This document shows positions 33,564 through 64,000 of a DNA stretch of 64,000 nucleotides, in pieces. Below the pieces are notes generated by a model. The model ran no database searches. It worked only from the letters and a program-made list of their open reading frames with translations, and had not been told where the DNA came from. The translations under genes and the position numbers were made by a program. Source of the stretch: Waterburya sp. (lineage in GTDB: Bacteria; Cyanobacteriota; Cyanobacteriia; Cyanobacteriales; Xenococcaceae); NCBI GenBank assembly GCA_965217895.1, contig CBDCJV010000002.1, positions 3,136,001-3,200,000 of the forward strand, read 5' to 3'. Position 1 is the stretch's first letter; each line of letters begins with the position of its first letter.

Positions 33564-33573
33564 TATTTAATGT

Positions 33574-34566: not shown

Positions 34567-34623
34567 TTTGATTACTATTTACTGTCGATCTATATTTCAC
34601 GAAGATGAGACTAACTACTAAAT

Positions 34624-35259
34624 TTATTTGGGTAATAAAAAATATGCAATACCACTCAAAATTGCTGCAATAGGTAAAGTTAATATCCATGAACTAAGAA
34701 CTTTGGAAAACATTCCTAAATTAGCAGTTTTAGAAACTACACCTACACACCAAGCCTTTTCTATTTTTAAAACGGTGCGAAAATAGTGTAATAAACTATA
34801 CAAAACAATCCCTAATATTATGGCAATTAAAGGACTAACCAAAAGAGGAATAAAAAATGATTTTCCTAAAGCTGTAAAATTCAATTGAGTACCGATCGCA
34901 GCTAGTCCAGCCCCCGTTAATGCCCCCGTGATTCCGTGAGTAGTAGAAATAGGAAACCCAGTCACAGTGGCGAGAATGACGGTTAAGGCTGCGCTTAAAG
35001 CCACTGCCAAATGAAATGACCCCGTATCGGCGATCGCATCAGGAACTAATCCTTTACCTGAGAAGTTTTCTAGTAGGGCATTAGCTAGAATTATCGAACA
35101 AATAGAACCAGCAAAAGTAGTCAAAGTTGCCCACCAAATAGCAACTTTATAGCTAGTTGTCTGACTGCCAAATAATGTTGCTACTCCCTTAAAATTATCG
35201 TTCGCCCCATTAGCATAAGCTAAAAAAACCGTCGCCAAAAAAATAGTAAAAGTCCACAT
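34624..35259 (-). pseudogene. PiT/PHO4 inorganic phosphate transporter with an apparent in-frame internal deletion
   Basis: N-terminal GANDN and PISTTH are present. The second PHO4 repeat is missing: KAWCV is joined directly to GVVSKTANL...SWILTLP, giving only 211 aa. Confidence 0.65.
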
Positions 35260-35406
35260 AATTACTGATTATCTACTAGATGAAACTATTTGGTGGGCAA
35301 AAAATAGCAAAAAATAGTTTTGTATTTTACCTACTAATAAGTTTTTGTTGCCCACCCTACAATGTTTAATGCTTAAAATTATCGTTCGCCCCTAGCTGTT
35401 CACTGA

Positions 35407-36612: not shown

Positions 36613-36852
36613 AGGTGGCTATCCTTTTACTTAACTTTGGCTATATACAGGTTAATCGTAGGGAGTATAGATTCAATCCTTCTTAGTAGATAAATTACTC
36701 CCTGATGATTTAATTTTTTATGTTCTGTTATTCTCTATTATTTAAGTTAACTGAGATTAAAACTTCCTGAGAATATACTTTGGTAAATCTAAAGCTTTTT
36801 CCGTAATTTTGCCATCTTTAATTGGAAATTCTCTATCAAAGGATGATTGATG

Positions 36853-37461
36853 CTAAATATATTTTTGCCATATAGCTAAATCTTCAGGGCGATCCACATC
36901 TGATAAAGTTTTAAGATAATAAGTGTTTAAATTTAATTGAGTGGCGATCGCTTTTGTCTGATTTAGTACTCGATCTGTTCCCCAATTTATATTTGCAAAC
37001 AGTTCGGGTCTAGTACGGTTTAAGCCAATTAAATAATATCCGCCATCGGTTGCCGAGCCTATTACTAAATCTAGATCCGACAATGAATTAAAAGCTGCTT
37101 CTAATATTGCTCGATCAATATCAGGACAGTCAGTACCAATAGTTACGACTCTTTTGCTTCCTAAACTGAAAGCTCGCTCAAACGCCGATCGCATTTTATC
37201 ACCCAAATCTCCTCTAACCTGGGGAATATATTCGAGATCTTTTCCTAACCATTCTGCTATTAGTTGTTTATTCCCTCCTGCAAAATGTACTTCTATGGTA
37301 ATGTCACGGTAAGACTTGAGATTTCTTGCAGTGTTGAGAGTATGTTCGCTCATCTGTCGCTGTAATTCTGCTGCACCTTCTGCATCCAAAGCTGGAATCA
37401 TACGAGTTTTTGTTTTTCCCGCTTCAGGATAGCGACTAAAAATAATTAAAGTTTCCCTCAT
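36853..37461 (-). CDS. TIGR04282-type (DUF2064) arsenosugar-associated glycosyltransferase
   Basis: Motifs PEAGKTKTRM, GDLGDKM, IGTDCP, DGGYYLIG and LSDVDRPEDL. Confidence 0.85.
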   Translation of the reverse strand: MRETLIIFSRYPEAGKTKTRMIPALDAEGAAELQRQMSEHTLNTARNLKSYRDITIEVHFAGGNKQLIAEWLGKDLEYIPQVRGDLGDKMRSAFERAFSLGSKRVVTIGTDCPDIDRAILEAAFNSLSDLDLVIGSATDGGYYLIGLNRTRPELFANINWGTDRVLNQTKAIATQLNLNTYYLKTLSDVDRPEDLAIWQKYI

Positions 37462-49701: not shown

Positions 49702-50940
49702 CTAACTGCGCATTACCCGTTCAACAGTTTTAAGCTGTCGAATAAAAAGCATCGAACCAGCCAAACAAACTAAACCATTAAAAACAAAGGTATTAACTAC
49801 TCCAATCTGACTAGCCAGCCACCCAGAAAATAAATTGCCAAAGGGAACTACACCCATAAAAGCCATAGAAACTAGGCTCATTAATCTGCCTATTTTGTCA
49901 TCATCGACTATGGTTTGTATGACTGTATTGGTAGAAGCTAGCTGTAAAATGACGCTAAAGCCAATCAGCACCATAACTGGGAGAGAAAACAATAAAATAT
50001 TAGAGAAAGAGAAAATAATAAAGCCAGTTCCCAGTAGCATAGGCGCGATCGCGATCGCCTTTTCTAAACCATATATATGCGACCTAGAACTAAGATAAAC
50101 GCTGGCAATTAAAGCCCCCAGTGCCGAAGCACCCATCAGTAATCCTAAAGTCTGGGAATCGCCTTTAAGAATATCAGCAGCAAAAATGGGGATCAAAATT
50201 ACATAGGGTAAGCCGACAAAGCCTAGCAAGGATAGCAATAGCAGCATCGAACGAATTGCCGAATTGTTATAAGCATAGTCAAATCCTTCCCTCAGCTTTT
50301 GCATGGTGGAGGTAGTGCTAGAAGCAATCTTAGTTGCGGGAACTTTCATCACCAAAAAAGCAGCAATTACCGCTATATAACTAATGCCGTCAAGCAAAAA
50401 GCAAATGCCCGCACCGACGCTAGCCACTAAAAAACCAGCTACCGCCGGACCAATTAATCTGGCACTACTAATCAAAGATGAATTAAGGGCGATCGCATTT
50501 CCTAAATCTTCTGGCTGTTCGATAATTTCCTTAACAAAAGCCTGAAGTGTCGGCAAATACAGGGCGTTAACTATACCTTGGAAAACTGAAAGTGCGATAA
50601 TTTGCCAAACGTTGATTATGCCCGTCAAAGCCAATATTGCCAAGAGTAAAGACTGTACCATCGATAAAATCTGAGTGACAATTACAATTCGATGGCGCGA
50701 ACCGCGATCGGCAATTACCCCAGCTATGGGAGAAATAAATAAAGTAGGAATACGACTGGCAAACCCGACTACACCCAGTAGCCAAGCTGACTCGGTTAAT
50801 TGATAAACTAACCAACTAGTAGCCAGAATAGTACTCCAGTTACCAATCTGAGAAATCCCTTGACCAATAAAATAAAGACAATAATTTCGATAGCGAAAGG
50901 CACGTAAAATTGGCAGTTTTTTTTCAATTTTTAGCTTCAA
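49702..50940 (-). CDS. MFS transporter (DHA3/MFS_3-like efflux)
   Basis: About 12 TM segments; GQGISQIGNW, GVIADR and ARLIGPAVAG. Confidence 0.88.
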   Translation of the reverse strand: MKLKIEKKLPILRAFRYRNYCLYFIGQGISQIGNWSTILATSWLVYQLTESAWLLGVVGFASRIPTLFISPIAGVIADRGSRHRIVIVTQILSMVQSLLLAILALTGIINVWQIIALSVFQGIVNALYLPTLQAFVKEIIEQPEDLGNAIALNSSLISSARLIGPAVAGFLVASVGAGICFLLDGISYIAVIAAFLVMKVPATKIASSTTSTMQKLREGFDYAYNNSAIRSMLLLLSLLGFVGLPYVILIPIFAADILKGDSQTLGLLMGASALGALIASVYLSSRSHIYGLEKAIAIAPMLLGTGFIIFSFSNILLFSLPVMVLIGFSVILQLASTNTVIQTIVDDDKIGRLMSLVSMAFMGVVPFGNLFSGWLASQIGVVNTFVFNGLVCLAGSMLFIRQLKTVERVMRS

Positions 50941-50991: not shown

Positions 50992-51891
50992 CTACAGCAT
51001 TAGAAATGTAATTAATTGCTGCCATTGGGTAAGATCGCCATTTTTATTAGCCAGAATTTGATTTAGATCGTCGAAATCTCGGTGAAGGCTGTCTTTCAAC
51101 TGACTAGCTTTCTGTTCATAAGCTCTAACCTGCTGAATATTTGACTCTCCCCGCAGTAGATATCGCCAGAAATAATCAAACAGATCTACTAATACTCGAA
51201 AAGGAAAAGGTGCATTGTCATAATCTAGACTAGCTAAATATGCTTCATATTCGCGATCCATCCCCCGAATGATTAAATACTCTAGATAGTTGAGTTTGAC
51301 AAAAGGGTTTTTAGGAAATTGCGCGAGTGCAGTCTGCATTATCTCTAAAGATTTCTCTGTTTGCCCGTGTTTGAGCAGAAATAGAGCATAGCGTTTAATC
51401 GCCCAGGTGTAAGCAGGATTGAGGTCTAAAACCCGTTCGTAACAACTTTGTGCTGCCTCTGTCCGTTCGTATTTTTCCAGAAAATAGGCGTAGTGAGAAA
51501 GAGTCCAAAGATCTTTATCGTATCCGTCATTCAATGCTTGTTCGTACCATTTGGCAGCACGCTCCATCTGGAAATTTCTTTCGAGAATATAGGCATAGTA
51601 ATTTGCTCCCAAACGATCTTCTTGTAGCTTAAAAGCTTTATCTAAATGCCATAGAGCCAGACTGTAATTATAAATTTTGCCGTGACACTGACCGATTCCA
51701 AAATGATAATCAGAAACTTCTTGCTGTCTGAGTAAATAGCGATACAGAGACATTGCCACATTGTAAACATCTTCTTCTCTGAGAAAATCTGCTACCTCAG
51801 TTACAGTTTCCAAAGGATACTGCTGATGATTATCCAAAATTTGCTGATATTCTTTCTCGCGGGCTAATTCCAGTAATTTATTGTTAGTCAT
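50992..51891 (-). CDS. TPR-like protein
   Basis: Helical repeats, e.g. YAYFLEKYERTEAAQSCYERVLDLNP. Confidence 0.75.
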   Translation of the reverse strand: MTNNKLLELAREKEYQQILDNHQQYPLETVTEVADFLREEDVYNVAMSLYRYLLRQQEVSDYHFGIGQCHGKIYNYSLALWHLDKAFKLQEDRLGANYYAYILERNFQMERAAKWYEQALNDGYDKDLWTLSHYAYFLEKYERTEAAQSCYERVLDLNPAYTWAIKRYALFLLKHGQTEKSLEIMQTALAQFPKNPFVKLNYLEYLIIRGMDREYEAYLASLDYDNAPFPFRVLVDLFDYFWRYLLRGESNIQQVRAYEQKASQLKDSLHRDFDDLNQILANKNGDLTQWQQLITFLML

Positions 51892-51942
51892 TGGTTATTA
51901 GTTATTAGTTATTAGTTATTGGTTGTTAGTTATTAGTTGTTA
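51892..51942. repeat. Heptamer tandem repeat (GTTATTA)n
   Basis: About seven degenerate copies fill the intergenic spacer. Confidence 0.75.
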
Positions 51943-53298
51943 TTTCTCCTGCTCCCTACTGCCTAGCCAAAAAGGATTAACTCCCCGTTCGGCTAATACT
52001 GTCCAGGCGGTTGCACCAACATGAAGGCTGCGAAAATAAAGCCAGGGATTACCATCAGGCTGAACAAAACCCGTGGTCAAGGTGGTTTTATTGGTAGTGG
52101 GCATTCCACCTGATGGCTCTTGTCCAGCTTCAAGCATTGCCAAGACAGCCTCAGCTTTTCGGGGTTGATTTGTTGCTTGATATGCCAATGCCATTTGTGC
52201 CGTACCTTCGTACCAAATACCGTCCCTGTCTTGGTTAAAATCAAAACCCCCTGCAACTTTGTGATGCTGTTCGGCATATTCAAGACATTGCCAATAGGGT
52301 TTAGAGGTTGTTTTTAAAGCCAAAGGTGTCCAGGCTTGGGCATCTAAAGGAATGACTTCTCGGTAAATAGTGGCTCCATCGTCTTCTGTTCCCGTCCAAA
52401 AGTTGCCCGCGTCGCTATTCCACATAGCAAAGACAAACTGTTGAGCATAATTGGCTCGTTCTTGCCAAGCGGGTTCTTTGGTAAGCAGATAAAGTCGTGT
52501 AAAAGCTGCATAGAGATCGAGGTTGTGTTCGGTAGACTTGTAGCTCAACTTTGTTTGTTGCCCTTCCCAACCTGTGTAGCCTCCTGTATAGCCCCCCGCA
52601 CCCCTTAAATCGCGACAGTTTTGTTCGATCCACTGCCCAAGGGCGATCGCCGATTCTAAATATTCTTCTCCTCCATAGCTTTGGTAATATCCTAGTAATG
52701 CCAGCATTGCCCAGGCAACGTTGCCCGTATGAGTACTAACGTTAAACTCGTTTTCTTGCCAGCTTTTAGTAGACTCGTCATATTTGCCAGGAAGTAAAAA
52801 AGAAGTTGAGTCAGGATCAAATTTGCCTCCCTTGTAAGCATTGCGAATTCGTCCATCATGAAAAAAGCGATCGCCTTTTTGGGCTGCGACTAGAGTATTG
52901 ACTATTTGTTTGGCTCGTTCTCGGTCATCCGAAGCGATAAAAGCCAAAGCAGCAACGGCATTGTCATAGGTAAAAGCTACCTTTTGGGAAATCGAATCGA
53001 ACTCAGGACTGTTATCAATTGCTGCATAGCTAACCATAAAACCAAAGTCTTTTTTGCTGCTATCTTTACTGCTATTCTTATCAGTTTGGGTTGTTGTCAA
53101 AGAGCGATCAAATACTTCTGCTAGATAGCTATAGCTGTTGTTTTTTACTGTGGAATCAACAGAAAAATTATCGAAACCTATTAAAACAGTAATTGTAATT
53201 AAAACCAGACAAGAAAATTGAATAAGCCAGTGCGATCGCTTATAAATAGATTTTTGGAAATTATTAGTTAATAAAAACATTATTAAGTACCCAAACAA
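51940..53298 (-). CDS. Membrane-anchored or secreted (alpha/alpha)-barrel glycosidase-like protein, family unassigned
   Basis: N-terminal TM helix and motifs AFTYDNA, TGNVAW, KSTEHNLD, PLDAQAW, GIWYEGT and HVGATAW; next to a glucan synthase. Confidence 0.55.
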   Translation of the reverse strand: MFGYLIMFLLTNNFQKSIYKRSHWLIQFSCLVLITITVLIGFDNFSVDSTVKNNSYSYLAEVFDRSLTTTQTDKNSSKDSSKKDFGFMVSYAAIDNSPEFDSISQKVAFTYDNAVAALAFIASDDRERAKQIVNTLVAAQKGDRFFHDGRIRNAYKGGKFDPDSTSFLLPGKYDESTKSWQENEFNVSTHTGNVAWAMLALLGYYQSYGGEEYLESAIALGQWIEQNCRDLRGAGGYTGGYTGWEGQQTKLSYKSTEHNLDLYAAFTRLYLLTKEPAWQERANYAQQFVFAMWNSDAGNFWTGTEDDGATIYREVIPLDAQAWTPLALKTTSKPYWQCLEYAEQHHKVAGGFDFNQDRDGIWYEGTAQMALAYQATNQPRKAEAVLAMLEAGQEPSGGMPTTNKTTLTTGFVQPDGNPWLYFRSLHVGATAWTVLAERGVNPFWLGSREQEK

Positions 53299-53415
53299 AA
53301 TAAATTACACATTTAATTTCCCCTTTTCCCTTTTCCCTTTTCCCTAAAACAGTATATGCGGACAAGTTCTTTAGCTAAAAAACTATGGGTTTCAAAGTAG
53401 ATGCGATTTATATAG

Positions 53416-55590
53416 CTAATTATTAAAATTTCTAGTTAAAGGATAAATACGAAAGATTGAACTAATCAAAGACCAGACAGATTTAACCTCACTGATTGAT
53501 TGTTTTTGCCATCGATTTGGTTGACCAAAAATAAAGCTAACTAATTTTCTTTGTTTACTCAGATCTAATTCAACAAAATCGATTTCTGCTAATAAGTTGC
53601 TTTGTCGATCTAAATTAACTTTGTCGATTGAAACAGGAGCATTAAATAAACCAATCTCAGGAATGTTTAAAGTAGCAATTCGCTCTACAGCATTTAAAGA
53701 AGTGAGATTGTTAATATTAAAAAAAGTTGTTGCGCCATGCTCAGATAAGCTTTTGGTAGTGCCGTCAAGTATTCTATCCTCGAACGTTAGTTGACAATTT
53801 AGCTGACAGGGAAAGCGAATTGCTAAAACTTTTTGGGGTACGTCGATCGCAATCAAGATTGCAATAAATAAAATGGCGGTGTTATAAATAGCCCAAAACA
53901 AACCAATACCAACTGAATCTAAATCTTGTTGCCATTGCCAGTTAAGAAACTGAGTGCCAATAGTTACTAAATAAAGCAGAAACAAGATTATTAAAGGGCT
54001 GGCAGCCTGCCAATTTAAGACGGCTTTTTTTGAGAATACTCCTTTAGGAGTGACTTTAAAACCTTTACCAAAAGGATTAATTAAAGTATTGATCACCATA
54101 AAAGCGATGGGAAAGGCAATAATTGCTCCATATACTTCCGCCCAAAAAAACGAACGTCTGCTACCATTTAGCCAAGCGAAAACTACGGCAAAAGTAAAGT
54201 AATAAGGCATAAAAAAGAACAGCAGTTCGCTAAAGCTAGCTTGAATAGGTGCAATTCCCCACCAAAAGTACCCTAGAGGTAAACACAGAAAAACGACATA
54301 GGCAGCAGATTGAAACCAGTAGAGAATGCCCAAGCCGTGAATAAAACGCTGTAACCAGTTCAAACCTGGCAAGATAAAAGGATTAGCTCGACAAAATAAA
54401 GTTTGAATCGTTCCCTGTCCCCAACGTAAACGCTGATCGATATAGCCACCAATATTTTCCGCTGCTAGTCCTGCTGAGAGAGATTCATTTAGATAAATAA
54501 CGCGATCGCCTATTGCCTGAATCTTGAGAGAGGTTACAAAGTCTTCAGTCAAAGTTTCGGTGGGAATACCGCCGATCTTGTCTAAAACTCGACGACGCAC
54601 CACGAAAGAAGAACCACAGCAGATAACTGAATTAGCTGCATCACGACCTGAGAGAATCGCCCCAAAAAAGATATCTTCGTCGTTGGTAATAACGCTTTGC
54701 AAGCCCAAATTATGTCGGATGGGGTCGCTATTGTAGTAGGCTTTGTTGGTTTGTACCAGAGCAATATCTGACTGTTGAAAAAAGCCAATGGTGCGGGTCA
54801 GAAAGTTGCGTGTAGGAATAAAGTCGCAGTCAAATACGGCTACTAATTCGCCCTGGATTTGTCCTAAAGCGTGGTTAATATTACCTGCTTTAGCGTGACG
54901 GTTATCGGGACGAGTAATATAATAACAGCCCAATTCTTGAGCCAAATCTCTCATTTCCCGTCGGCGCAGATCATCAAGGAGATAAATTCGTTTGTGGGCA
55001 TAGTCCATTCCCTGACAGCCAATAATTGTTCGGCGCAGCATAGCAGCAGGCTCGTTATAGGTAGGGACGAGAACATCTATCCAGGGAGTATATTCCCCTT
55101 GCAATACAGCTTGGGATCTAAAATCTGCCTCGATAGCGCGATCGCGTTCAAAAACAGCCAATAACAGCGAAGAAATACCCAAAATCCAGCCTAAAATCTC
55201 TAAAATTAACAGAAAAATACTGAGGGTGCCGTTGAGCAAGTTATCTAAATTGAGGGTGGCAAACAGTCGCCATAAAAAATAGCGTCCTAACAACAATAGC
55301 AAAATGCCCATTACTATCAATCGTAACCATTTTGGCGGATTTACTGGATATAGCTGAATAATGAGAAAAGTAACTGCAACCCCGACCAAACTAGGTAAAA
55401 TCAGAGAACTGGTTTCAGGTGCAACGCTGCCAAAAGTTAGCTGACTACCCTGCCAAAAACTAGACAATTCGGCAGTTGTTCCCCACCAATTTATTTTTGT
55501 CAACAGCAGAAACAAAATTCCTCCTGTCGCCGTAACTACTATTCCCTGTTCGATCAATGTCCACCAACTAGCTTTTAGTTTATTTGCCAC
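53416..55590 (-). CDS. Cellulose-synthase-like processive GT2 (BcsA/XcsA type) with a PilZ-like C-terminus
   Basis: Motifs PTYNE, LLDD, HAKAGN, FDCD, CCGS, TED, QRLRW and FKVTPKG. Confidence 0.9.
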   Translation of the reverse strand: MANKLKASWWTLIEQGIVVTATGGILFLLLTKINWWGTTAELSSFWQGSQLTFGSVAPETSSLILPSLVGVAVTFLIIQLYPVNPPKWLRLIVMGILLLLLGRYFLWRLFATLNLDNLLNGTLSIFLLILEILGWILGISSLLLAVFERDRAIEADFRSQAVLQGEYTPWIDVLVPTYNEPAAMLRRTIIGCQGMDYAHKRIYLLDDLRRREMRDLAQELGCYYITRPDNRHAKAGNINHALGQIQGELVAVFDCDFIPTRNFLTRTIGFFQQSDIALVQTNKAYYNSDPIRHNLGLQSVITNDEDIFFGAILSGRDAANSVICCGSSFVVRRRVLDKIGGIPTETLTEDFVTSLKIQAIGDRVIYLNESLSAGLAAENIGGYIDQRLRWGQGTIQTLFCRANPFILPGLNWLQRFIHGLGILYWFQSAAYVVFLCLPLGYFWWGIAPIQASFSELLFFFMPYYFTFAVVFAWLNGSRRSFFWAEVYGAIIAFPIAFMVINTLINPFGKGFKVTPKGVFSKKAVLNWQAASPLIILFLLYLVTIGTQFLNWQWQQDLDSVGIGLFWAIYNTAILFIAILIAIDVPQKVLAIRFPCQLNCQLTFEDRILDGTTKSLSEHGATTFFNINNLTSLNAVERIATLNIPEIGLFNAPVSIDKVNLDRQSNLLAEIDFVELDLSKQRKLVSFIFGQPNRWQKQSISEVKSVWSLISSIFRIYPLTRNFNN

Positions 55591-56929
55591 CGAACAATCC
55601 CCCTCTTATGTCACGTTTAAAAACTACTTCCGCACTACGTCCTACATCACAGAACTGTGTCGAATTAGCCTCAAGCGGTCGATCTAGCTTTACTCTTACT
55701 GCTACCTGACGGCGGACGCTATCTGGTGGCGGTACGGCAATATCTCCTCCTGTTTGAATCCGTCCCGAACCTGCCCGAACCGACTCAACTTTTCCACTGA
55801 CCAAATCACCATTTTCTGCACCCAATAAACGCACCTTGACAGGTTTACCTGGATAAATTTTTCCTGCATCCTGCTCGGAGAAAAAGGCTTCTACCCAAAG
55901 GTTTTGACAGTTTAATACCTCCAAAATGGGAACACTCGCTTCAGCGTATTCGCCCGATTTCGATTCCACCGACCAAATAGGACCACTGGTGGGACTAGGA
56001 ATCTTGGCCTGTTGATTGAGTGACAACTGGCGATCTATTTCAACTAATTCGGCCTCAGTAGTTTGCTGGCGCACCCTTGCTTCAGCAAGCTGCTGCTGCA
56101 TATCATTGATGTCAGTACTAAGTTCTCGCTGACGAATCTCTGAATATCCCAAAGTACGAGAACCTTCTAACTGTAATCCTGCTTGGGCTGCTTTTGCCTT
56201 TTGTTTGGCTTGGTTTACTTGCAATCGCGCATTTTTTACTTCGTTTTGAGCGCGATTAAAATTCAACTGAGATCTTTCTAACTTATCTTGAGAAAACACC
56301 CCCTGTTTAGCTAAATTAGTGATGCGTTCTAGCTCTTTTTTAGCAGTATTGGCAGCAAATAAAGCTCGATCTAGCTGATTTTTAGCAATATCTATTTGTT
56401 GATCTTCATAGTTCACTCCCAAGTCTTGTTGAGTGTTAGCTTCCTGCTCTAATTTAGCGATCGCTTTACGGCGATCGCCAATTTGCGCTTCAACACCAAG
56501 TACAGTTTGTTTTGCCTGTTCGATCTGGGAAATAAGACTTTGCTTGGTTACTTCAAGTTCACTGCTTTGACGTAAATTTTTTACCGTACCAATGTTTTCC
56601 CCGACAGAAATAGACTGACCTGGCTGGAGATTTTTTAGCTGTAAATTACCAGCAAGAGGATTGCGAACTTTGACAATTTCGGCATTAATAAATGCCTGAC
56701 GACTACGCACATTTGAATAGTTCTGCTGTACCATAAGTCCAACTGCTGTGGCTACACCCAATGCCATCACTAAACGTAAAGCTCGAAATGCTTTTACCCG
56801 CACAGGAACTGATGCAGGTGGTAGAGGTTTGTATTGAACCAGAGGTAGTTTCTCTAATCTGGTTAGAGATGTTTTAGATTCTGGTTCGGGCAATTCGGGT
56901 AATTTATTGGCTGATTTACGATTGGACAA
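55580..56929 (-). CDS. HlyD-family membrane fusion protein
   Basis: One N-terminal TM helix, a long coiled coil and a barrel-sandwich IPSPTSG; overlaps the GT2 start. Confidence 0.85.
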   Translation of the reverse strand: MSNRKSANKLPELPEPESKTSLTRLEKLPLVQYKPLPPASVPVRVKAFRALRLVMALGVATAVGLMVQQNYSNVRSRQAFINAEIVKVRNPLAGNLQLKNLQPGQSISVGENIGTVKNLRQSSELEVTKQSLISQIEQAKQTVLGVEAQIGDRRKAIAKLEQEANTQQDLGVNYEDQQIDIAKNQLDRALFAANTAKKELERITNLAKQGVFSQDKLERSQLNFNRAQNEVKNARLQVNQAKQKAKAAQAGLQLEGSRTLGYSEIRQRELSTDINDMQQQLAEARVRQQTTEAELVEIDRQLSLNQQAKIPSPTSGPIWSVESKSGEYAEASVPILEVLNCQNLWVEAFFSEQDAGKIYPGKPVKVRLLGAENGDLVSGKVESVRAGSGRIQTGGDIAVPPPDSVRRQVAVRVKLDRPLEANSTQFCDVGRSAEVVFKRDIRGGLFGGK

Positions 56930-56974: not shown

Positions 56975-57991
56975 TTAGGCGATCGCAACCCGATTGGAAG
57001 GTGTATCCTCTCCTGTAGCTGATTTAGCAAAACAATTGTGAGCATCAAAAAACTTTAGTTGTCGATAGAGCATTGATACTTGGGGCATCTGTATCCCTAC
57101 CTGCCAAGCCGTTCGTAAGGGATTACCAAAAATAGCCTCTACTTCAAGCGATCGCCCTTGATTAAAATCGATTTTCATGCTGGTTTCATAGTCTTTCATC
57201 GCTGCACTTTGTTTAATTCGTTTTTGAACGAACACTTCGGGAATATAGCGACCATAAGCCTTGGCTGCGGTAACTATTTCCGCCATTAACTGTTCGATAG
57301 AAGTGCGAACGTGAGCGTTATTAAACATTTCTTGATTGGTAGAATTCAAAACCACCGAAAGACCATTAACAGGGATATTGCAGATTAGCTTTTGCCAACG
57401 AGCCAAAAATAAGTCTTCATGTAGCTGAATCATCACATCAGCTAGAGCAAAGTCGGCTGCAATCTGACACATTCTGCTACTGACTCCCGCAGCACGATAG
57501 CCAGGAACATAATCTGCTAAGGTAATCAAACCATAGTCGAGATGACGAATATGTCCTGGTGCGATCTTATAGTTCAGAGTAAAACAAACGCCTCCCATCA
57601 CGCGATCGCTACCTATAATCTCAGCAATCTCCTCTTCCATACCCCAGCCATTTTGCAGCACCAGCACCACGCCGTTATTTTTAAGAACTTGAGGCAAGAT
57701 TTGGGGCAGTAAATGATTACTGGTAGTTTTGAGAGCAACAATAACTACATCACAAGGAGGCATCTGGCTAGCGTTGTTGTAAGCTCGAACAGAAGGTAAA
57801 GTAAAATCGCCGTCGGGAGATTCAATAATCAATCCGTGTTGGCAAACGTGGCTAAAATCGCGATTTAACAGAAAATGTACGTCAAAGCCCGCTCTTTGTA
57901 AACAAGCACCGTAGAAAGCACCGATCGCTCCAGTGCCAATAATGGCGTAGCTACGACGGTCATCGGTCGTTGAGCATTTATCATTTATCAT
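56975..57991 (-). CDS. 2-dehydropantoate 2-reductase (ApbA/PanE) family protein
   Basis: Motifs IIGTGAIG, LQNG, RWQKL and TSMKIDF...LEVEAI. Confidence 0.85.
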   Translation of the reverse strand: MINDKCSTTDDRRSYAIIGTGAIGAFYGACLQRAGFDVHFLLNRDFSHVCQHGLIIESPDGDFTLPSVRAYNNASQMPPCDVVIVALKTTSNHLLPQILPQVLKNNGVVLVLQNGWGMEEEIAEIIGSDRVMGGVCFTLNYKIAPGHIRHLDYGLITLADYVPGYRAAGVSSRMCQIAADFALADVMIQLHEDLFLARWQKLICNIPVNGLSVVLNSTNQEMFNNAHVRTSIEQLMAEIVTAAKAYGRYIPEVFVQKRIKQSAAMKDYETSMKIDFNQGRSLEVEAIFGNPLRTAWQVGIQMPQVSMLYRQLKFFDAHNCFAKSATGEDTPSNRVAIA

Positions 57992-58785
57992 TTGCCAGTA
58001 TTCCTACTTCCTACAGAAACGCCTAAGCAAAATTCTTTAATCTCTCGCGCTACTTTGGCTGGTTGTTCTACCTGTAAATAGTGACCCGCATCGGCAATGT
58101 TCACCAAATGGGCATTAGGCATTTGTTTGGCTAACAATTTTCCTTTGCGGGGAGAAATAATTACATCATCACCGCCAGTTAAAATCAAGGCGGGAATTCG
58201 TACAGAAGAGATCGCCTCACTTAAATCGATTTGACTAATACCCATAAAGTCATTCGCAGCTTTGCTCAAACGAGTATGTTTAAACTCATTTAAAACCAAA
58301 TTTTTGACCTCTTCTGGTACTTCAGGGGCAAAACTTTGCCCTAGGGTTGCCAAATCCCATTCTCCACTGATAGCCGATGCCCAAAAGTCGGGATGAAGCT
58401 GAATCTTGGCTGCTGTGGTCATCAAAATTAGTCGTGTGACTCGTTGAGGATAAGACAAGGCAAACTGTAGCCCGATCAAACCGCCCAATGATTGACCAAC
58501 GTAGCAAATTGGCTGTTCGATATTTAGTGCCGTCAAGAAAGCTGCTAAAAAATCGGCAACCTCTGTTAAAGAATTAGGAACTGTTCCAGATGTGTTCCCG
58601 TGTCCTGGCAAGTCTACCGCTATCGAACAAATACTACTATCCAATTGAGACATCATTGGCAACCAATGACGGCTACTGCCCCCCGCCCCGTGTACCAGCA
58701 ACATCAAGGATTCTGTATCAGGACTAGGTAATCCTTGAGGGGCTATATAATTGACGTTGTAATCTGCAACTTTTATTGATGGCAT
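57988..58785 (-). CDS. Alpha/beta hydrolase
   Basis: HGAGG, DLPGHG, nucleophile elbow GQSLGG, and catalytic D (GGDD) and H (AGH). Confidence 0.9.
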   Translation of the reverse strand: MPSIKVADYNVNYIAPQGLPSPDTESLMLLVHGAGGSSRHWLPMMSQLDSSICSIAVDLPGHGNTSGTVPNSLTEVADFLAAFLTALNIEQPICYVGQSLGGLIGLQFALSYPQRVTRLILMTTAAKIQLHPDFWASAISGEWDLATLGQSFAPEVPEEVKNLVLNEFKHTRLSKAANDFMGISQIDLSEAISSVRIPALILTGGDDVIISPRKGKLLAKQMPNAHLVNIADAGHYLQVEQPAKVAREIKEFCLGVSVGSRNTGK

Positions 58786-58872
58786 AATTTTAAAAGGATG
58801 AGGAATAAGGAAAGAAGTGCAGCTATGGCAAGAAGGCTAAAAAACTAACCGCTACTCTTTACTTGCTACTTC

Positions 58873-60252
58873 CTACTCCCTACTCTCCCGTACGCGCGAA
58901 CGGCCGTTCGCCCGTACTTCTGACTTCTCTTCAGATTCCATCACAATACTAGACAGCATCGTGTTCATCTTATTGACTGATTCAATATATTCTTTTTCGG
59001 GAACAGATTCGCCGACGATTCCCGCCCCAGCATTAAGATACACGCTGTCACCATATTGATATGCCGAACGAATGGCGATCGCAATATCTGCCGTACCGTC
59101 GCTATCTACCCAGCCAATGCCACCTGCATAGAGTCCTCTGGGTCGATCTTCAAGGCGATCAATCCACTCCAAAGCCAGTTTTTTATTAATTCCTGAAACG
59201 GTAATCCCAGGAAATAGCACCTTCAAAGCATCCCACAGAGATTTGTCAGTTTTAAGCTGTCCGCCAACCCGCGAGGAAAGATGTTGAACGGTACGATATT
59301 TTTTAACTTCCATAAAGTCAAATACCTGTACGGTTTCTGGTTGACATACTTGCGTCACCTCTTTTTGAGCTAGCCAAACAGATAAAGCGTGTTCTTTAAC
59401 TTCTTTAGCATCGGTAAACAGTTCATCATGGAGCAAAGCATCTTTGGCGGGATCGGCTTCGCGATGTCTAGTTCCCGCTAAAGGATTAGTAATTACAAAT
59501 CCGCTAGCATTGACCTCCATCAAAATCTCAGGACTAAAACCAACCGAACGCACATCTCCTAACTTAAAACAGTAAGAACGAGCCGAGTTGTTGACCGCAG
59601 CACCCATGTTATAAGTACCCAGTACGTCTAAGTTGCCTTTGACTTCTACTGAACGAGAGATAATTGCCTTGTGTAATTCGCCCCGTTGAATTGCCGAAAC
59701 TAGATCGCCGACTCTTGACTCATATTCTTGGTTGTCCCCTGGTTCTGCCTTTGGCGGGGTTACTTGATATTCTGGCTGTTGAACTTCAACAGATATTGCC
59801 TCTAATAGTTTCGAGGGAGAATTGATGCTACGAATATGTACTCCTTTATCTGTAATTCGTAGCTCAATTTCTGGCACAAAAAAATAAAGCATCGGCTGGG
59901 AGATCGCCTTTGAGTATGCCGAATAGAACCGAGCAATATCAAAACCGACATAGCCATAAGCCGTCCAATTTTCTACGGGTAGATGACTCAACACCGACTC
60001 TACCTGCTTGAGCGGATCGCTGACAGCTTCAGAATAAGTTTCACCTAAATAGTTACTGTAAATTGTGTCCGTTCCCACCGCCACATCAGCCAAGGGATTA
60101 GCAACAATACGCACCTCGTTTTCCTGCTCATACAGCATATAGTCAGTGAATATATCGGCTGCGATCGCATTCCTCAGCAGCATCTGAGGGTCAGTTTTAC
60201 CTGGAACAAAGACTTCGTGATAGGTCTGTAAATTATCGGCTAGTAAATACAT
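58873..60252 (-). CDS. Salicylate synthase (Irp9/MbtI-type MST enzyme)
   Basis: HKAIISR, ARSYCF, GFSPE, TNPLAGTR, KEVKEHALSV, VQHLSSRV, LFPGITVSGI and AGAGIV. These match the Irp9/MbtI pattern better than TrpE or MenF. Confidence 0.85.
   Translation of the reverse strand: MYLLADNLQTYHEVFVPGKTDPQMLLRNAIAADIFTDYMLYEQENEVRIVANPLADVAVGTDTIYSNYLGETYSEAVSDPLKQVESVLSHLPVENWTAYGYVGFDIARFYSAYSKAISQPMLYFFVPEIELRITDKGVHIRSINSPSKLLEAISVEVQQPEYQVTPPKAEPGDNQEYESRVGDLVSAIQRGELHKAIISRSVEVKGNLDVLGTYNMGAAVNNSARSYCFKLGDVRSVGFSPEILMEVNASGFVITNPLAGTRHREADPAKDALLHDELFTDAKEVKEHALSVWLAQKEVTQVCQPETVQVFDFMEVKKYRTVQHLSSRVGGQLKTDKSLWDALKVLFPGITVSGINKKLALEWIDRLEDRPRGLYAGGIGWVDSDGTADIAIAIRSAYQYGDSVYLNAGAGIVGESVPEKEYIESVNKMNTMLSSIVMESEEKSEVRANGRSRVRESRE
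58890..58917. repeat. 28-bp REP-like palindrome inside the 3' end of the salicylate synthase gene
   Basis: GTACGCGCGAACGGCCGTTCGCCCGTAC. Confidence 0.7.
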
Positions 60253-60290
60253 GATTAGTTGTTAGTTGTTGATTAAGGAAAAAAATAGTA

Positions 60291-60785
60291 TTAAACGGCA
60301 ACTGTTTGTGGTTTTGATTCTTCGGCAGTCCAAGCTTCAACTGCTTCTTTAATTGCCTGCATCTGAACTTTTGTATTGCGATTGAGAAATGACTCCATTT
60401 TTTCTACTGCCCATGCGCCTTCTGCTGGTGCAAATTTCTGCTCCCAGGTCATGACTGTACCGACGTTTTGCGGTAGCTCCTCATAAGTCCAGTAGATTTT
60501 CATCATCTCAAATGGAAAAGCCTGCTTGACTCGTTGCGCTTCGGCTTTTTTGCCAGGCTTATCGATGATGCGAGTCGAAACCCAAGTGCGAGAAGGATGA
60601 TCCTCTTCGGGAAAAGTAGTCAGTTGAAACGTTACTTTGTTGCCGTCTCTTTCTAAAACTTTGGCTTCTTCATACTCAGTAAATAGCTGAGGCCATAGTT
60701 CGATATTATTAGTCAAATCAAAAACGGTATCAAAGTCTTTGAGGATGACAATGGTATTGTGAGTGTATCCAGGTAATTCTGACAT
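60291..60785 (-). CDS. Polyketide aromatase/cyclase (SRPBCC; WhiE-ORFVI/TcmN type)
   Basis: GYTHNTIVI..VFDLTNNIELWPQLFTEY..VLERDGNKVTFQL..WVSTR..PFEMMKIYWTY..GTVMTWEQKF..NRNTKVQM parallels WhiE-VI along its whole length. Confidence 0.85.
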   Translation of the reverse strand: MSELPGYTHNTIVILKDFDTVFDLTNNIELWPQLFTEYEEAKVLERDGNKVTFQLTTFPEEDHPSRTWVSTRIIDKPGKKAEAQRVKQAFPFEMMKIYWTYEELPQNVGTVMTWEQKFAPAEGAWAVEKMESFLNRNTKVQMQAIKEAVEAWTAEESKPQTVAV

Positions 60786-60850
60786 TTATTTGTTGCTCCT
60801 ATTTAAATTTATTAATTGAAAAAAAACAGAGGTGTTGTAGAGCTACTTCC

Positions 60851-60878
60851 GTACGGGCGATTCGCGAATCGCCCGTAC
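60851..60878. repeat. Perfect 28-bp REP-like palindrome
   Basis: GTACGGGCGATTCGCGAATCGCCCGTAC is its own reverse complement. Confidence 0.8.
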
Positions 60879-60913
60879 TGTACTTATTACTTTTCTCTTT
60901 ATCCCTCATTGCT

Positions 60914-61699
60914 TTAGGGAACTATTCCTACCGCCCGAACCCAGCTAGCGTCTAGGTCTTTGATCTTTAAAGGAAAACAGGATACCTGAAAGCCCGTAGA
61001 GGGCAAACTATCTAAATTTGCTAGGCGTTCGATCTGGATGTATTCTCGTTCTCGTCCGTAAAAGTGTGCCGGCCAAAGGTTAGCGCGATCGCCTGTTTCC
61101 CAGAAGTCTTCGAGCATGGTTACAAAGGGGCGATCGAATCCATAGGTATCGATGCCGATCACTTTAATTCCCTGTTTTACCAGCCATTCGGTAGCCTCAC
61201 GGCTCATCCCAGGAGCGTCGCTAAAGTATTCCCGTTTGCCCCACAGCTTATCTGTTCCCGTCCAAAGTAAAACTATGTCTAAAGGTTTTAGTTCGTGTTG
61301 GGCTTGCTGGAGAGCGTTTTGAATATCCTCAACGGTGATAAATTCTCCCGCTTTTTTATGAGTTAAATCTAAACGAACTCCAGGACGATAAAACCAATCT
61401 AGAGGGAGAAGGTCTACGCTGCGAGCGGGTTGACCTTCACTCTCCACACCATAGTGAATTGGTGCATCAATATGAGTACCCATGTGGGTGGGTAAGGTTA
61501 CCGTATCGAGGGTAATAAAAGCGCGATCGGGAAAATCTTCTACCCCTAGGCGACGAGGATCGGATTTAGCTTGGTTACGAGCTTCTACCTTGCCGCAAAA
61601 CTCCTTTGCCCCTCGATAATGATCCAGTCGGTCTACCTTTATTTCTAAAGGTTCAGAAACCGAATTTTCGACTAAGACACTAAGATCGACTAGCTGCAC
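60914..61699 (-). CDS. Cyclase family protein (kynurenine formamidase-like fold, as in type II PKS cyclases)
   Basis: Motifs THMGTHIDAPIHY, GIDTYGFD, LWPAH, IERLANL and ASWVRAV. GTG start placed at 61699. Confidence 0.85.
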   Translation of the reverse strand: MQLVDLSVLVENSVSEPLEIKVDRLDHYRGAKEFCGKVEARNQAKSDPRRLGVEDFPDRAFITLDTVTLPTHMGTHIDAPIHYGVESEGQPARSVDLLPLDWFYRPGVRLDLTHKKAGEFITVEDIQNALQQAQHELKPLDIVLLWTGTDKLWGKREYFSDAPGMSREATEWLVKQGIKVIGIDTYGFDRPFVTMLEDFWETGDRANLWPAHFYGREREYIQIERLANLDSLPSTGFQVSCFPLKIKDLDASWVRAVGIVP

Positions 61700-62015
61700 T
61701 TTCAGTTTGCTCCTGTTTCTGCATATATGCCTCAATGTGGATCATTGCTTCATCGAGAGCCAAGTTAGTATCGGTAATGCCGACAATTGGTAGGGCTAGT
61801 AAGATAGCTGCAATGATTTCTTCTTTAGTCGCCCCTTCTTCCATCGCTCGTTCGACGTGGGTATTAATACCTCGTAGACCACGATGAGCAGCAAAAATGC
61901 CTAAGATGATTAATTCATTGGTTTTCATCCCCAAGGGAGAATATTCTCTGGCAGATTTAGCTAGATCGAAAAAGCTTTGAGCCACTTCGGGGGCTTCTTT
62001 CATCATGTTTTTCAT
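61680..62015 (-). CDS. Carboxymuconolactone decarboxylase/AhpD-like protein
   Basis: LGMKTNELIILG..HVERAMEEGATKEEI; no CxxC motif. Confidence 0.8.
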   Translation of the reverse strand: MKNMMKEAPEVAQSFFDLAKSAREYSPLGMKTNELIILGIFAAHRGLRGINTHVERAMEEGATKEEIIAAILLALPIVGITDTNLALDEAMIHIEAYMQKQEQTESAASRS

Positions 62016-62417
62016 TTAATTTTCTCCTTGTTCTAAAATAATGTGTCCTTCTTTGGGTGATGGTGCTAAAGGGCCAGAGGCAAAAACCACCACAATTTCT
62101 TCCTCGCCAACGTTGTAAATAGAGTGAGCCTTTCCTTGGGGAGTCAGCACTGCCTGACCCGCCTGGAAATTCACGTCTCCCACACCTTCGACTACAATTT
62201 TTCCTTGACCTTGCAAGACATAAAAGCATTCTTCACTGTGGGGATGGGCATGGTTTAAAACTTTCCCGCCAACGGGGACGGTTGCTGTTCCCATGATCAT
62301 TTTGGTTGAGCCAACGCTGGTAGGAGAAATCAGAACATGAATCTGACCGCCTCGGTCTTCGATAGTAGCAACGTCTTCTGGACCCATTGCTAGCTTTTGG
62401 TTTTGAACTGTAGTCAT
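62016..62417 (-). CDS. Cupin-fold polyketide cyclase (WhiE-ORFII/TcmJ/CurC type)
   Basis: RGGQIHVLISPTSVGST...HAHPHSEECFYV...VVFASGPLAPSPKEGH parallels WhiE-II. Confidence 0.8.
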   Translation of the reverse strand: MTTVQNQKLAMGPEDVATIEDRGGQIHVLISPTSVGSTKMIMGTATVPVGGKVLNHAHPHSEECFYVLQGQGKIVVEGVGDVNFQAGQAVLTPQGKAHSIYNVGEEEIVVVFASGPLAPSPKEGHIILEQGEN

Positions 62418-62426
62418 AATTGATTG

Positions 62427-62454
62427 TTAGAGGCAAACGACCGTTCGCCCGTAC
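62427..62454. repeat. Degenerate 28-bp REP-like hairpin
   Basis: TTAGAGGCAAACGACCGTTCGCCCGTAC. Confidence 0.6.
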
Positions 62455-62469
62455 ATAAATAATTGGTAA

Positions 62470-63999
62470 TTAATTTTTCTGCACAAGCTGACGAGCTTTG
62501 AGCAAGGCTTGACGATGAATCTTTCCCGTTGAGGTGCGGGGTAGCTGGTCTAAAAAGTGAATTGCTTTTGGAGCTTTAAAGCTGGGTAAATTAGCACGAA
62601 CTAATTTACGCAAACTGTCTTTTAATCGCCCTGACTCTTCAAAACCAGATTTGAGACTGATATATGCCACTGCCTGAGTTAGATTCTGTCCGCCACCAGA
62701 TTCGGGAACAACAGCTGCATCTAAAACCGCTTCGTGTTGAAGTAAAATATCTTCAATTTCAAAGGGAGATACCCACTTACCACTGACTTTAAACAAATCA
62801 TCTTTGCGTCCCATGAAAAAGAAATAACCATCTTCATCGCAGATATATTTGTCTCCAGTCCGCATCGTATTACCATAGATAACCTCTCGCGTTTGCTGGT
62901 GGCGATTCCAGTATTGCAGCATCAGACTTGCTCCCCCGACCTGGAGATTGCCAATTTCGCCTTTAGATAGGTCAAAACCGCGATCGTCTACAATCCGCAC
63001 ATCATAACCAGGAACTGGCTTACCGCAGCTACCAGGACGACATTCTCCTACACGATTAGATAAAAAAATATGCAGAAATTCACTCGTGCCAATGCCTTCG
63101 CAGATCTCAAGATCAAAGCGATCGCGCCATTTATGCCAGATACTTTTAGGTAGCTGTTCGGCTGCTGAAAGACACAGCCTCAAGGAACTAGTATCTAAAG
63201 GCGCAATTTCTTGTACTGCCCAAATCCCTGAATAAATTGCAGGAATGGCAAATAAAACCGTCGGTCGATAGCGATTAATATCGGCAATGATATCAAAAAC
63301 ATTATTGGCATCAGTCAATACCGCAGCAGCCCCAACCGCCATCGGCATATATAAAGTGTTGCCCAAACCATAGGCAAAGGGCATTTTGGCTACTGAATAG
63401 ACAATATCGTCTTGATTCAAACCAATAGTTGCCCGTGCATACTCTTCGGCGCACATTGCCATGCTGCGATGCAGGTGAACCACACCTTTTGGTTTACCCG
63501 TACTGCCAGAAGTATAAAGCCAGAATGCTGGTTCGTCTGGGGAAGTACGGGCTGGATTGGGGACATGATTTATTTGACTAGATCTTTGGGTAAAAGAAGT
63601 TTCGCCATCGGTAATAATGGTTTGACGTAAAAACTCAGAGTTATTTAGAGATAGTTTACTTTGCCAGTCTTGATTAGTAATTAAAATCTTTGCCCGACAG
63701 TCTTGCACAATATATTGAATATCTTCAATCGTACAGGCGGTATTAATCGGCACTGGTACTGCCCCCATCCAGATTGCCCCCCAAAAAGCAAAGACAAATT
63801 CAGGACTATCGCTTAGCAAGATAGCAACACGATTTTCTCGTTCTAAGCCCAGTTCGGACAGTAGTGCTGCTGCTTGGCAAACTTCCTCATTAACTTTGCG
63901 ACAGCTATAGGCTAGATCTTGATAGTAGAAAGCAATTCGTTCGCCATCTTCTTGGACAAGACTAGACTTAAGAAAGTAAGCTGCAACATTAAAGATTTC
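62470..63999 (-). CDS. Benzoate-CoA ligase family adenylating enzyme (probable salicylate-CoA/ACP ligase), 5' end outside the window
   Basis: Frame open to the window edge (EIFNVAAYFL...). Motifs WLYTSGSTGKPKG, FAYGLGN, GIGTSEFLHIFLSN, RTGD and LPRTSTGKI. Confidence 0.88.
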   Translation of the reverse strand, partial: EIFNVAAYFLKSSLVQEDGERIAFYYQDLAYSCRKVNEEVCQAAALLSELGLERENRVAILLSDSPEFVFAFWGAIWMGAVPVPINTACTIEDIQYIVQDCRAKILITNQDWQSKLSLNNSEFLRQTIITDGETSFTQRSSQINHVPNPARTSPDEPAFWLYTSGSTGKPKGVVHLHRSMAMCAEEYARATIGLNQDDIVYSVAKMPFAYGLGNTLYMPMAVGAAAVLTDANNVFDIIADINRYRPTVLFAIPAIYSGIWAVQEIAPLDTSSLRLCLSAAEQLPKSIWHKWRDRFDLEICEGIGTSEFLHIFLSNRVGECRPGSCGKPVPGYDVRIVDDRGFDLSKGEIGNLQVGGASLMLQYWNRHQQTREVIYGNTMRTGDKYICDEDGYFFFMGRKDDLFKVSGKWVSPFEIEDILLQHEAVLDAAVVPESGGGQNLTQAVAYISLKSGFEESGRLKDSLRKLVRANLPSFKAPKAIHFLDQLPRTSTGKIHRQALLKARQLVQKN

Positions 64000-64000
64000 A

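Follow-up and report, generated by a model that had tools for sequence, protein, structure and literature searches.

A predicted salicylate-primed aromatic type II polyketide synthase cluster in the cyanobacterium Waterburya and its possible link to the sheath pigment gloeocapsin

The closest described relatives of the gene cluster analyzed here, which is located in a 64,000-nucleotide stretch of the genome of the cyanobacterium Waterburya sp. (assembly GCA_965217895.1, contig CBDCJV010000002.1, positions 3,136,001 to 3,200,000), are two salicylate-primed systems built on a type II polyketide synthase (PKS), namely the thermorubin (the) cluster of Laceyella sacchari and gloPKS of Gloeocapsa sp. 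PCC 7428. Thermorubin is a ribosome-binding antibiotic that has a C29 backbone with the terminal ring oxidized and cleaved to a pyrone and carries three methyl groups; the phenol that could close onto the salicyl-diketone is methylated in it. The gloPKS cluster encodes a ketosynthase (KS) and chain length factor (CLF), an acyl carrier protein (ACP), a phosphopantetheinyl transferase (PPTase) and a salicylate:CoA ligase; in vitro, the ligase gloSCL loads salicyl and gloKS-CLF uses 11 malonyl units to give C29H20O10 and C29H22O11, and the malonyl-only reaction yields orange/brown products as well as dodeca- and tridecaketides (PMC11744666). This PKS has already been expressed in E. coli, and its in vivo product profile is stated as unclear by its authors (PMC11744666). 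Given that the cluster type is in print, the interest of the new locus lies not in the existence of the cluster but in its native product.

In the 64,000-nucleotide stretch (hereafter the window, G000:C2:3136001-3200000, where G000 is the source genome) and the flanking locus L001 (G000:C2:3198001-3218000), we detected a run of 17 genes, from KSα to a major facilitator superfamily (MFS) transporter, all on the minus strand and separated by gaps of -20 to 128 bp (coordinates below are those of the window unless a locus is named, and genes are on the minus strand unless stated otherwise). A sequence-only reading of positions 56975-64000 had described eight minus-strand open reading frames (ORFs) as part of a salicylate-started aromatic polyketide cluster and had predicted KS, CLF and ACP genes past base 64000. 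All eight ORFs are present, and KSα, CLF, ACP and PPTase genes are located within 3.5 kb of the window end. The extent had to be revised, the cluster being about 20 kb rather than 7 kb, with a FabD paralog, a tetratricopeptide repeat (TPR) protein, the MFS transporter and a HlyD/BcsA/hydrolase module as additional members. Judging from the sequences, the locus encodes an aromatic type II PKS that is primed with salicylate, belongs to the thermorubin/gloPKS family and lacks the late tailoring of thermorubin. The salicylate-started reading is supported by the minimal PKS beyond the window together with the match to the thermorubin genes, and the locus combines an adjacent KSα/CLF pair, a discrete ACP and aromatase/cyclase genes, the hallmarks of an aromatic type II PKS. 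Comparison with the genomes G455 and G449 gave dN/dS values of 0.017-0.42 in 37 of the 38 comparisons, indicative of purifying selection; the remaining row (the Type ISP domain gene against G455) was misaligned and was dropped.

The proposed thermorubin logic holds gene for gene. At the Laceyella locus (L013), 11 core genes with 37-64% identity follow the order of the window, namely KSα, CLF, ACP, PPTase, ligase, cupin, CMD protein, metal-dependent cyclase, aromatase, salicylate synthase and hydrolase, and the protein cluster of the Laceyella CLF contains a protein named TheF. The Gloeocapsa sp. PCC 7428 cluster, which the sequence-only reading had named as a relative, does exist and has been published, with priming by salicylate in vitro (PMC11744666). 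The gloCLF protein (AFZ33250.1) is 75% identical to the window CLF overall and shares 97 of the 106 positions over residues 95-200. In L012, a named relative with a CLF 94% identical to gloCLF, the order from KSα to the PanE-like gene is the same as in the window, which differs by an additional divergent FabD paralog, an ISP-domain gene, the HlyD/BcsA/hydrolase module and a downstream TPR-MFS pair, and by the loss of a gene for a protein resembling methylenetetrahydrofolate reductase (MTHFR).

Among the minimal PKS proteins, KSα (L001:4167-5444) retains the Cys-His-His residues in the motifs STGCTAG, HGSST and GHSL. In the CLF (L001:2845-4056), Arg is found at the position of the active-site Cys and Glu at that of the first His; the same Arg is present in gloCLF, the Phormidesmis CLF and TheF, and none of them has Gln at this position, which we take to replace the Cys in classical actinobacterial CLFs and to be tied to starter decarboxylation. 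The ACP (L001:2493-2798) contains an LQLDST motif, with the phosphopantetheine Ser within LDST, and a tail of about 25 aa, and carries Q31, S34 and T35 in the numbering of gloACP; it has no Pfam match itself, and its orthologs match PF00550. The AcpS-type PPTase (L001:2048-2416, from the likely start) scores above the TIGR00556 cut-off and is 44% identical to the Laceyella protein.

For starter supply, the run encodes a salicylate synthase and a predicted salicylate:CoA/ACP ligase. The ligase (62470..64000, with the start at L001:2026, 26 bases past the window end) scores 504 bits against the cut-off of 375 for TIGR02262, the benzoate-CoA ligase family, has benzoate- and anthranilate-CoA ligases as its top PDB matches and is 52% identical to the Laceyella ortholog. 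The salicylate synthase (58873..60252) is an MbtI/Irp9-type enzyme of the menaquinone, siderophore and tryptophan (MST) family that scores 351 bits against the TIGR03494 cut-off of 325 and finds MbtI and Irp9 as its best PDB matches. With positions counted from the alignment, it retains K205, E252, T271, E297, H334, T361, Y385, R405, E434 and K438 of MbtI, which we assume to be active-site residues that include the Lys205-type base and the lyase site, and no glutamine amidotransferase partner is encoded in the gene run. On this sequence evidence, the predicted activity of the MST enzyme is that of a salicylate synthase.

Three PKS cyclase types had been assigned to the window. This assignment stands for the monodomain TcmN/WhiE-type aromatase-cyclase (60291..60785; Pfam Polyketide_cyc), which is predicted to form the first rings (C9-C14 type) and has as its top PDB matches three 'polyketide cyclase' entries, 3tvr, 3tl1 and 2kf2 (E-values from 3e-30 to 2e-29; presumably the WhiE ARO/CYC), with TcmN at 2e-27. 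The TcmJ/WhiE-II label of the cupin, a probable ring cyclase (62016..62417; PF07883), fared less well, with its match to the PDB 'tetracenomycin polyketide synthesis protein' (E-value 3e-4) ranked under oxalate decarboxylases, and the metal-dependent cyclase of the Pfam Cyclase family (ORF 60914..61735, likely GTG start near 61699; PF04199) matches chiefly hydrolases in PDB. Neither protein can be typed by sequence alone; a PKS role is suggested for both because they are orthologous to thermorubin cluster genes (50% identity to the same-position Laceyella cupin and 64% to the cyclase). The carboxymuconolactone decarboxylase (CMD)/AhpD-like protein (61680..62015; PF02627; 55% identical to its Laceyella counterpart) has no CxxC motif, with no Cys pair in the alignment to AhpD, and shows a dN/dS of 0.017; it may be a cyclase helper or have a role in oxidation. 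The alpha/beta hydrolase (57988..58785; PF00561, Abhydrolase_1), which contains a GQSLG motif and is 52% identical to the product of the final gene of the Laceyella run, is a probable chain-release thioesterase.

The two loci differ in the genes outside the shared core. Genes for an ARD-like cupin, a ferritin-like protein and an LCM-type methyltransferase are confined to the Laceyella locus, as is a class I methyltransferase gene placed between those for the ACP and the PPTase, whereas PanE, FabD, TPR and exopolysaccharide (EPS) genes are found only at the Waterburya locus, and the MFS transporter is a different one. In G000, tblastn searches gave no match for the ARD-like, LCM-type and ferritin-like proteins, the class I methyltransferase query retrieved generic methyltransferases only (29-36% identity over about 100-170 aa), and PF03079 was not found by profile (the control matched in 5/14); the ARD-like and ferritin-like proteins were likewise not found in 5/5 other cluster genomes, in a search with no positive control. 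Pyrone formation and methylation in thermorubin are tentatively assigned to these four genes. Given that methyltransferases and ring-cleaving oxygenases are missing from the cluster, the predicted product is an unmethylated, uncleaved salicyl-tetracene polyphenol, and its free phenols would make possible both oxidation to a tetracenequinone and phenol closure onto the salicyl-diketone. Two O-methyltransferase genes are located near one cluster copy (L011:276-2424), and three related genes (41-52%) lie together at G000:C2:2527319-2535926, from where their products could act in trans.

The WhiE spore-pigment and tetracenomycin PKSs resemble the system in the window in a long unreduced chain, with no ketoreductase in the cluster, and their aromatases are the most similar to its monodomain aromatase; the window differs from them in the aryl starter and in that no TcmI-type cyclase was seen in the cluster. 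WhiE offers a precedent for anchoring a pigment made by a type II PKS in the cell envelope. The window CLF scores better against a FabF than against the act CLF, and the closest characterized relatives of the cluster are from cyanobacteria and Bacillota, not from actinobacteria.

Combining these data with the gloPKS results, we propose the following pathway. The MST enzyme would convert chorismate to salicylate; the ligase would activate salicylate and load it onto the ACP, as shown for gloSCL; the FabD paralog would supply malonyl; and KSα-CLF would add 11 malonyl units to form a C29 chain, as shown for gloKS-CLF and suggested here by the 97/106 identity of the CLFs. We consider this part of the scheme, from salicylate synthesis to the C29 chain, highly probable on sequence grounds. 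The aromatase, the cupin and the metal-dependent cyclase, perhaps with the CMD protein, would then close four linear rings (C9-C14, C7-C16, C5-C18 and C3-C20), as suggested by the same gene set and the structure of thermorubin, and the hydrolase would free the acid. The resulting product would be a pentahydroxy-tetracene acetic acid that bears a salicyl-beta-diketone arm, C29H20O10 (528.1056), that is, the linear acid less four waters; oxidation would convert it to the tetracenequinone C29H18O11, and closure would produce a flavone-like ring in the form of a fused 2-aryl-pyranone (C29H18O9 or C29H16O10). The calculated [M+H]+ values are 529.1129 for C29H20O10, 543.0922 for C29H18O11, 511.1024 for C29H18O9 and 525.0816 for C29H16O10, with 485.1231, 499.1024 and 481.0918 for C28 forms that have undergone decarboxylation. 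By analogy with the described systems, the four linear rings and the unmethylated, uncleaved C29 product are likely. In the final step, the MFS transporter would export the product, gloeocapsin or a congener, to the exopolysaccharide sheath, where it would screen light in a pH-sensitive manner; the entire mechanism, including the role of an exported sheath pigment, seems to us slightly better than an even bet.

The cluster has a sparse distribution. Family-level counts were taken over 61 family genomes and phylum-level counts over samples of 401 genomes. The CLF was detected in 3/401 genomes in each of two overlapping phylum samples, G000 included, in 11 of the family genomes, all within the same genus, and in 2/3 genomes of the G011 genus; a twelfth family copy, that of G451, carries a frameshift and escaped the CLF search, which brings the total to 12/39 in the genus. 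A scan of GTDB genomes yielded 15 loci, 11 from cyanobacteria, one from Laceyella sacchari and three from actinobacteria, and the cyanobacterial loci keep a common core gene order as far as the contigs extend. A metagenome scan (query P0070) returned one close locus among 28, L021, with the order KS-CLF-ACP-PPTase-ligase-cupin as in the window; the others are distant KS genes. In a quick CLF tree, the cyanobacterial sequences group together (SH-aLRT 98, with one long-branch row), with TheF outside, and comprise Leptolyngbya-type, Rhizonema, pleurocapsalean and Chroococcidiopsidales-type subclades. Related CLFs (54-62%; P0081, P0090, P0098; L021) are encoded in Bacillus pseudomycoides, B. cytotoxicus, a Rickettsiella endosymbiont and the metagenome contig.

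Gloeocapsin, one of only two long-recognized cyanobacterial sheath sunscreens, emerges as a candidate product. The pigment, which 'remains enigmatic' as of April 2026, with an unsolved structure, has been proposed as a fossil and astrobiology biosignature, and on one axis its Raman signal falls into the anthraquinone-derivative range, yet it is set apart from all other compounds by clustering (PMC13213007). It has been considered probably anthraquinone-like, or else a coumarin or flavonoid; its presence is confirmed for three lineages, and one of the producers is Phormidesmis nigrescens ULC007 (PMC10359912). Two database records from Phormidesmis priestleyi, PSB21932.1, a CLF that is 73% identical to the window CLF, and PSB21939.1, annotated as 'polyketide cyclase [Phormidesmis priestleyi ULC007]' and orthologous to the aromatase (64% identity at the level of cluster representatives), both have a longest contig of 497,214 bp and are seven accessions apart, which is the CLF-to-aromatase spacing of the window. 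Because the CLF is so rare, its coincidence with a producer strain is unlikely to be due to chance, and the presence of cluster genes in a cultured producer makes the cluster a testable candidate for pigment synthesis. The three lineages reported for the pigment match hosts of the CLF (Chroococcidiopsidales-type, pleurocapsalean and Leptolyngbya-type), and the predicted quinone-pyranone would join two of the chemical classes proposed for gloeocapsin (PMC10359912).

The gene neighborhoods are compatible with a product destined for the sheath. Of the 14 cluster copies whose downstream flank could be read (two others, which end at contig edges, were left out), 10 have exopolysaccharide hallmark genes in the cluster or no more than 3 kb away, compared with 1.6% of random points in G000. 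The BcsA module is present in G000, G431, G449, G455, G456, G444 and a decayed copy in G430; Wzc/Wzx genes lie beside the clusters of G101 and G444, and WecG-type genes directly follow PanE in G402 and L012. From these sequence comparisons, we assign roughly even odds to the possibility that the cluster family is the pathway of gloeocapsin or a congener, and an equally balanced probability to the more specific proposal of a thermorubin-related pigment, a C29 tetracene(quinone)-pyranone started from salicylate, with the run of the window lineage joined to a sheath-building secretion module of the cellulose synthase type. A candidate cluster in a cultured axenic producer, exact masses and a sister PKS expressed in E. 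coli together make the structure and the pathway of the pigment testable, and if the link is true, gene trees could date the pigment; should it fail, the cluster would still predict what gloPKS makes natively and point to a natural precursor of thermorubin that stays uncleaved. In sources where the pigment and polyketides are both discussed, we found no tie of gloeocapsin to a PKS in the parts consulted; Lara 2022, cited beside 'pigment biosynthetic gene clusters' in PMC13213007, may name candidates. A link to scytonemin was considered and is not used here: scyC is present in 7/61 family genomes and is shared only with G452, where the cluster is spread over two contigs, and the decayed G430 (Fisher p = 0.64). 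Four Chamaesiphon records (P0221, P0222, P0235 and P0249) carry this salicylate synthase family; in Chamaesiphon polonicus, a third unknown sheath pigment has been described, with a Raman spectrum that clusters with quercetin (PMC13213007).

Several observations weigh against the proposed pathway and its link to the pigment. A single producer genome, that of ULC007, was examined, and only two of its cluster genes, those for the CLF and the aromatase, were seen by name; this strain holds three NRPS/PKS-like clusters (NRPS, nonribosomal peptide synthetase), any of which could make the pigment (PMC5313606). The cluster is far more common in some lineages than in others (12/39 in the Waterburya genus and 2/3 in that of G011). 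EPS neighbors are missing in 4/14 copies (G428, G451, G452 and L011), and those found amount to about three independent arrangements, as copies in related genomes are not independent. As to the chemistry, generic methyltransferases encoded elsewhere in G000 could act in trans, the roles of the ARD-like and ferritin-like proteins in thermorubin biosynthesis are themselves inferred, and gloACP was not activated by gloPPTase in vitro (PMC11744666). Finally, the window lineage lacks the MTHFR-like flavoprotein of many relatives, so that its product may differ from theirs.

This last point can be developed into an alternative, under which the window lineage makes a shunt or altered product after the loss of a flavoprotein needed for the end product of the family. 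The MTHFR-like gene, which precedes KSα in 7/61 family genomes and was found only alongside the cluster in the family search, is reduced here to a stub of 29 codons (L001:5525-5611, minus strand), and the intact proteins (L005:7724-8635 and L012:4837-5763) have Tyr (GGYP) in place of the Asp of the GDP motif of housekeeping MetF. Because of this replacement, the sequence suggests a repurposed flavin-dependent tailoring enzyme. The loss is common to five genomes (G000, G431, G449, G455 and G456), the other genes are still under purifying selection in the comparisons with G455 and G449, and L011 likewise has no MTHFR-like gene at that place; on balance, we find this scenario improbable. A somewhat more serious contender, although also unlikely in our estimate, retains the C29 chemistry and casts the product as a desmethyl pre-thermorubin that leaves the cell through the MFS transporter and acts as a diffusible antibiotic or allelochemical; the EPS genes would then be passengers. 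Ancestry from the thermorubin pathway would fit this notion, as would the patchy distribution within one genus, the decayed copy in G430 and the TolC or DevBCA-type exporters that flank several cluster copies. The genes taken to build the pyrone and the methyl groups of thermorubin are absent, though, the MFS transporter aside there is no obvious self-resistance gene, and neither the gloeocapsin-producer match nor the retention of the EPS module in the run under purifying selection would be explained.

The remaining alternatives concern the use of salicylate. The combination of salicylate synthase and ligase, on which the sequence-only reading relied, is indeed present inside the PKS run but is not diagnostic alone. 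The salicylate synthase was detected in 14/401 genomes, and in six of the seven cyanobacterial loci without a type II PKS that were read (of 11), a cassette of ACP, AcpS-type PPTase (in most of them), ligase and salicylate synthase adjoins NRPS/type I PKS genes. In these loci, L063-L068 (in G212, G002, G306, G266, G029 and G318), the cassette has a KS III-ACP protein beside it along with modules of NRPS/type I PKS type, and two of the loci have TonB receptors. The loading cassettes of these salicylate-capped clusters, presumably of the anachelin type, are 44-67% identical to that of the window, whereas no CLF or cyclases were found in the stretches read. Thus, by sequence, one salicyl-loading starter module appears to serve both type II PKS and siderophore-like lines; as the salicylate synthase tree was mostly unresolved, we propose no direction of transfer. 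Given that salicyl-beta-diketones can bind iron, the product could be envisaged as an iron chelator comparable to the siderophores with a salicylate cap in other cyanobacteria. The ligase aside, no NRPS-like match was found within about 40 kb, and no TonB-dependent receptor was detected anywhere in G000, either by profile or with two cyanobacterial receptors as queries; because both searches for a receptor were negative, we hold the siderophore function, which the sequence-only reading also disfavored, to be very improbable. Equally hard to credit is a PKS mostly primed with acetate in vivo, with C24-C26 products and salicylate serving another purpose: gloKS-CLF did build dodeca- and tridecaketides from malonyl-CoA alone (PMC11744666). 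Against this, the ligase and salicylate synthase genes are fixed inside the run in both cyanobacteria and Laceyella, and the CLF has no Gln of the kind linked to starter decarboxylation.

Downstream of the core, the run continues with a PanE-like 2-keto-acid reductase (56975..57991; NF004887, 398 bits against a cut-off of 360), which is encoded by a single-copy gene in G000 and is missing from the Laceyella locus. This gene was found in 13/61 family genomes, namely 11 of the 12 with the cluster, the decayed G430 and one with a 48% paralog; a housekeeping role for PanE was rejected. It is followed by the embedded exopolysaccharide module, which comprises a HlyD-like periplasmic adaptor (55580..56929; PF13437), found in 7/61 family genomes and each time beside PanE, a BcsA/CelA-like glycosyltransferase of family GT2 of the cellulose synthase type (53416..55590; TIGR03030, 484 bits, under the cut-off of 699), with two further paralogs in G000 at 42-43%, and a glycoside-hydrolase-like protein, putatively secreted and from an unnamed family (51940..53298). 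The last assignment is a lead only, given the weak match to GH127 (E-value 3e-4); the Atlas neighbors of this protein are clusters with no Pfam family, and the nearest that has one is GH88, at 0.90. The trio (51940-56929) resembles the tripartite cellulose secretion system of Thermosynechococcus. The third protein of the trio bears the automatic label 'methylaspartate ammonia-lyase', and its family has no Pfam model.

The run ends with a cluster-specific TPR protein (50992..51891), present in 11/61 family genomes (10/12 with the cluster and the decayed G430), and the MFS transporter, the candidate exporter (49702..50940; PF05977). G402 and L012 have an ortholog of the TPR protein (57%) whose gene lies upstream of the cluster; orthologs of the MFS transporter with at least 80% identity are present in 11/12 cluster-bearing genomes and G430, and 45-55% homologs in three others. 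At the opposite end, beyond the MTHFR-like stub, two genes lie on the plus strand, one for a stand-alone Type ISP C-terminal domain (L001:6052-6558; in 11/12 cluster-bearing genomes) and the other for the FabD paralog (L001:6743-7657), which scores above the TIGR00128 cut-off, is 53% identical to a second FabD elsewhere in G000 and is found at the matching place in 8 of the 11 loci that the GTDB scan gave for cyanobacteria. Among the family genomes, the PanE, TPR, MFS and ISP genes track the cluster. An aspartyl beta-hydroxylase/LpxO-like dioxygenase gene (L001:7712-8476) adjoins FabD and, among the loci read, is found only in close relatives of the window.

Scans for promoters and terminators gave chance-level results. 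A hairpin with a 12-bp stem (60851-60878) is located between the metal-dependent cyclase and aromatase genes, and a similar short sequence is found near 62450 and 58910. Some cluster copies have been disrupted: in the decayed copy of G430 (L059:9184-15380), a transposase has been inserted, a deletion has fused the MTHFR-like gene with KSα, and the genes from CLF to aromatase have been lost, and at L010:16087-17439 a transposase between the aromatase and the contig end splits the cluster. Variable additions include a gene for a MAPEG-family membrane protein between the salicylate synthase and hydrolase genes (L006:17389-17829 and L061:9866-10306) and, on the downstream side of the G428 cluster, genes for a FAD-dependent halogenase-like protein (L058:11531-12781) and a TolC/DevBCA-type exporter. 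In the window, a cytochrome P450 gene (47502-48878) lies on the same strand about 0.8 kb past the MFS gene, a position at which it was not found in the relatives read. Further away, the run of genes for a VTT-domain protein, a radical SAM protein (DUF3641), a phosphate transporter, a methyltransferase and a DUF2064 protein (32877-37461) resembles an arsenosugar cluster.

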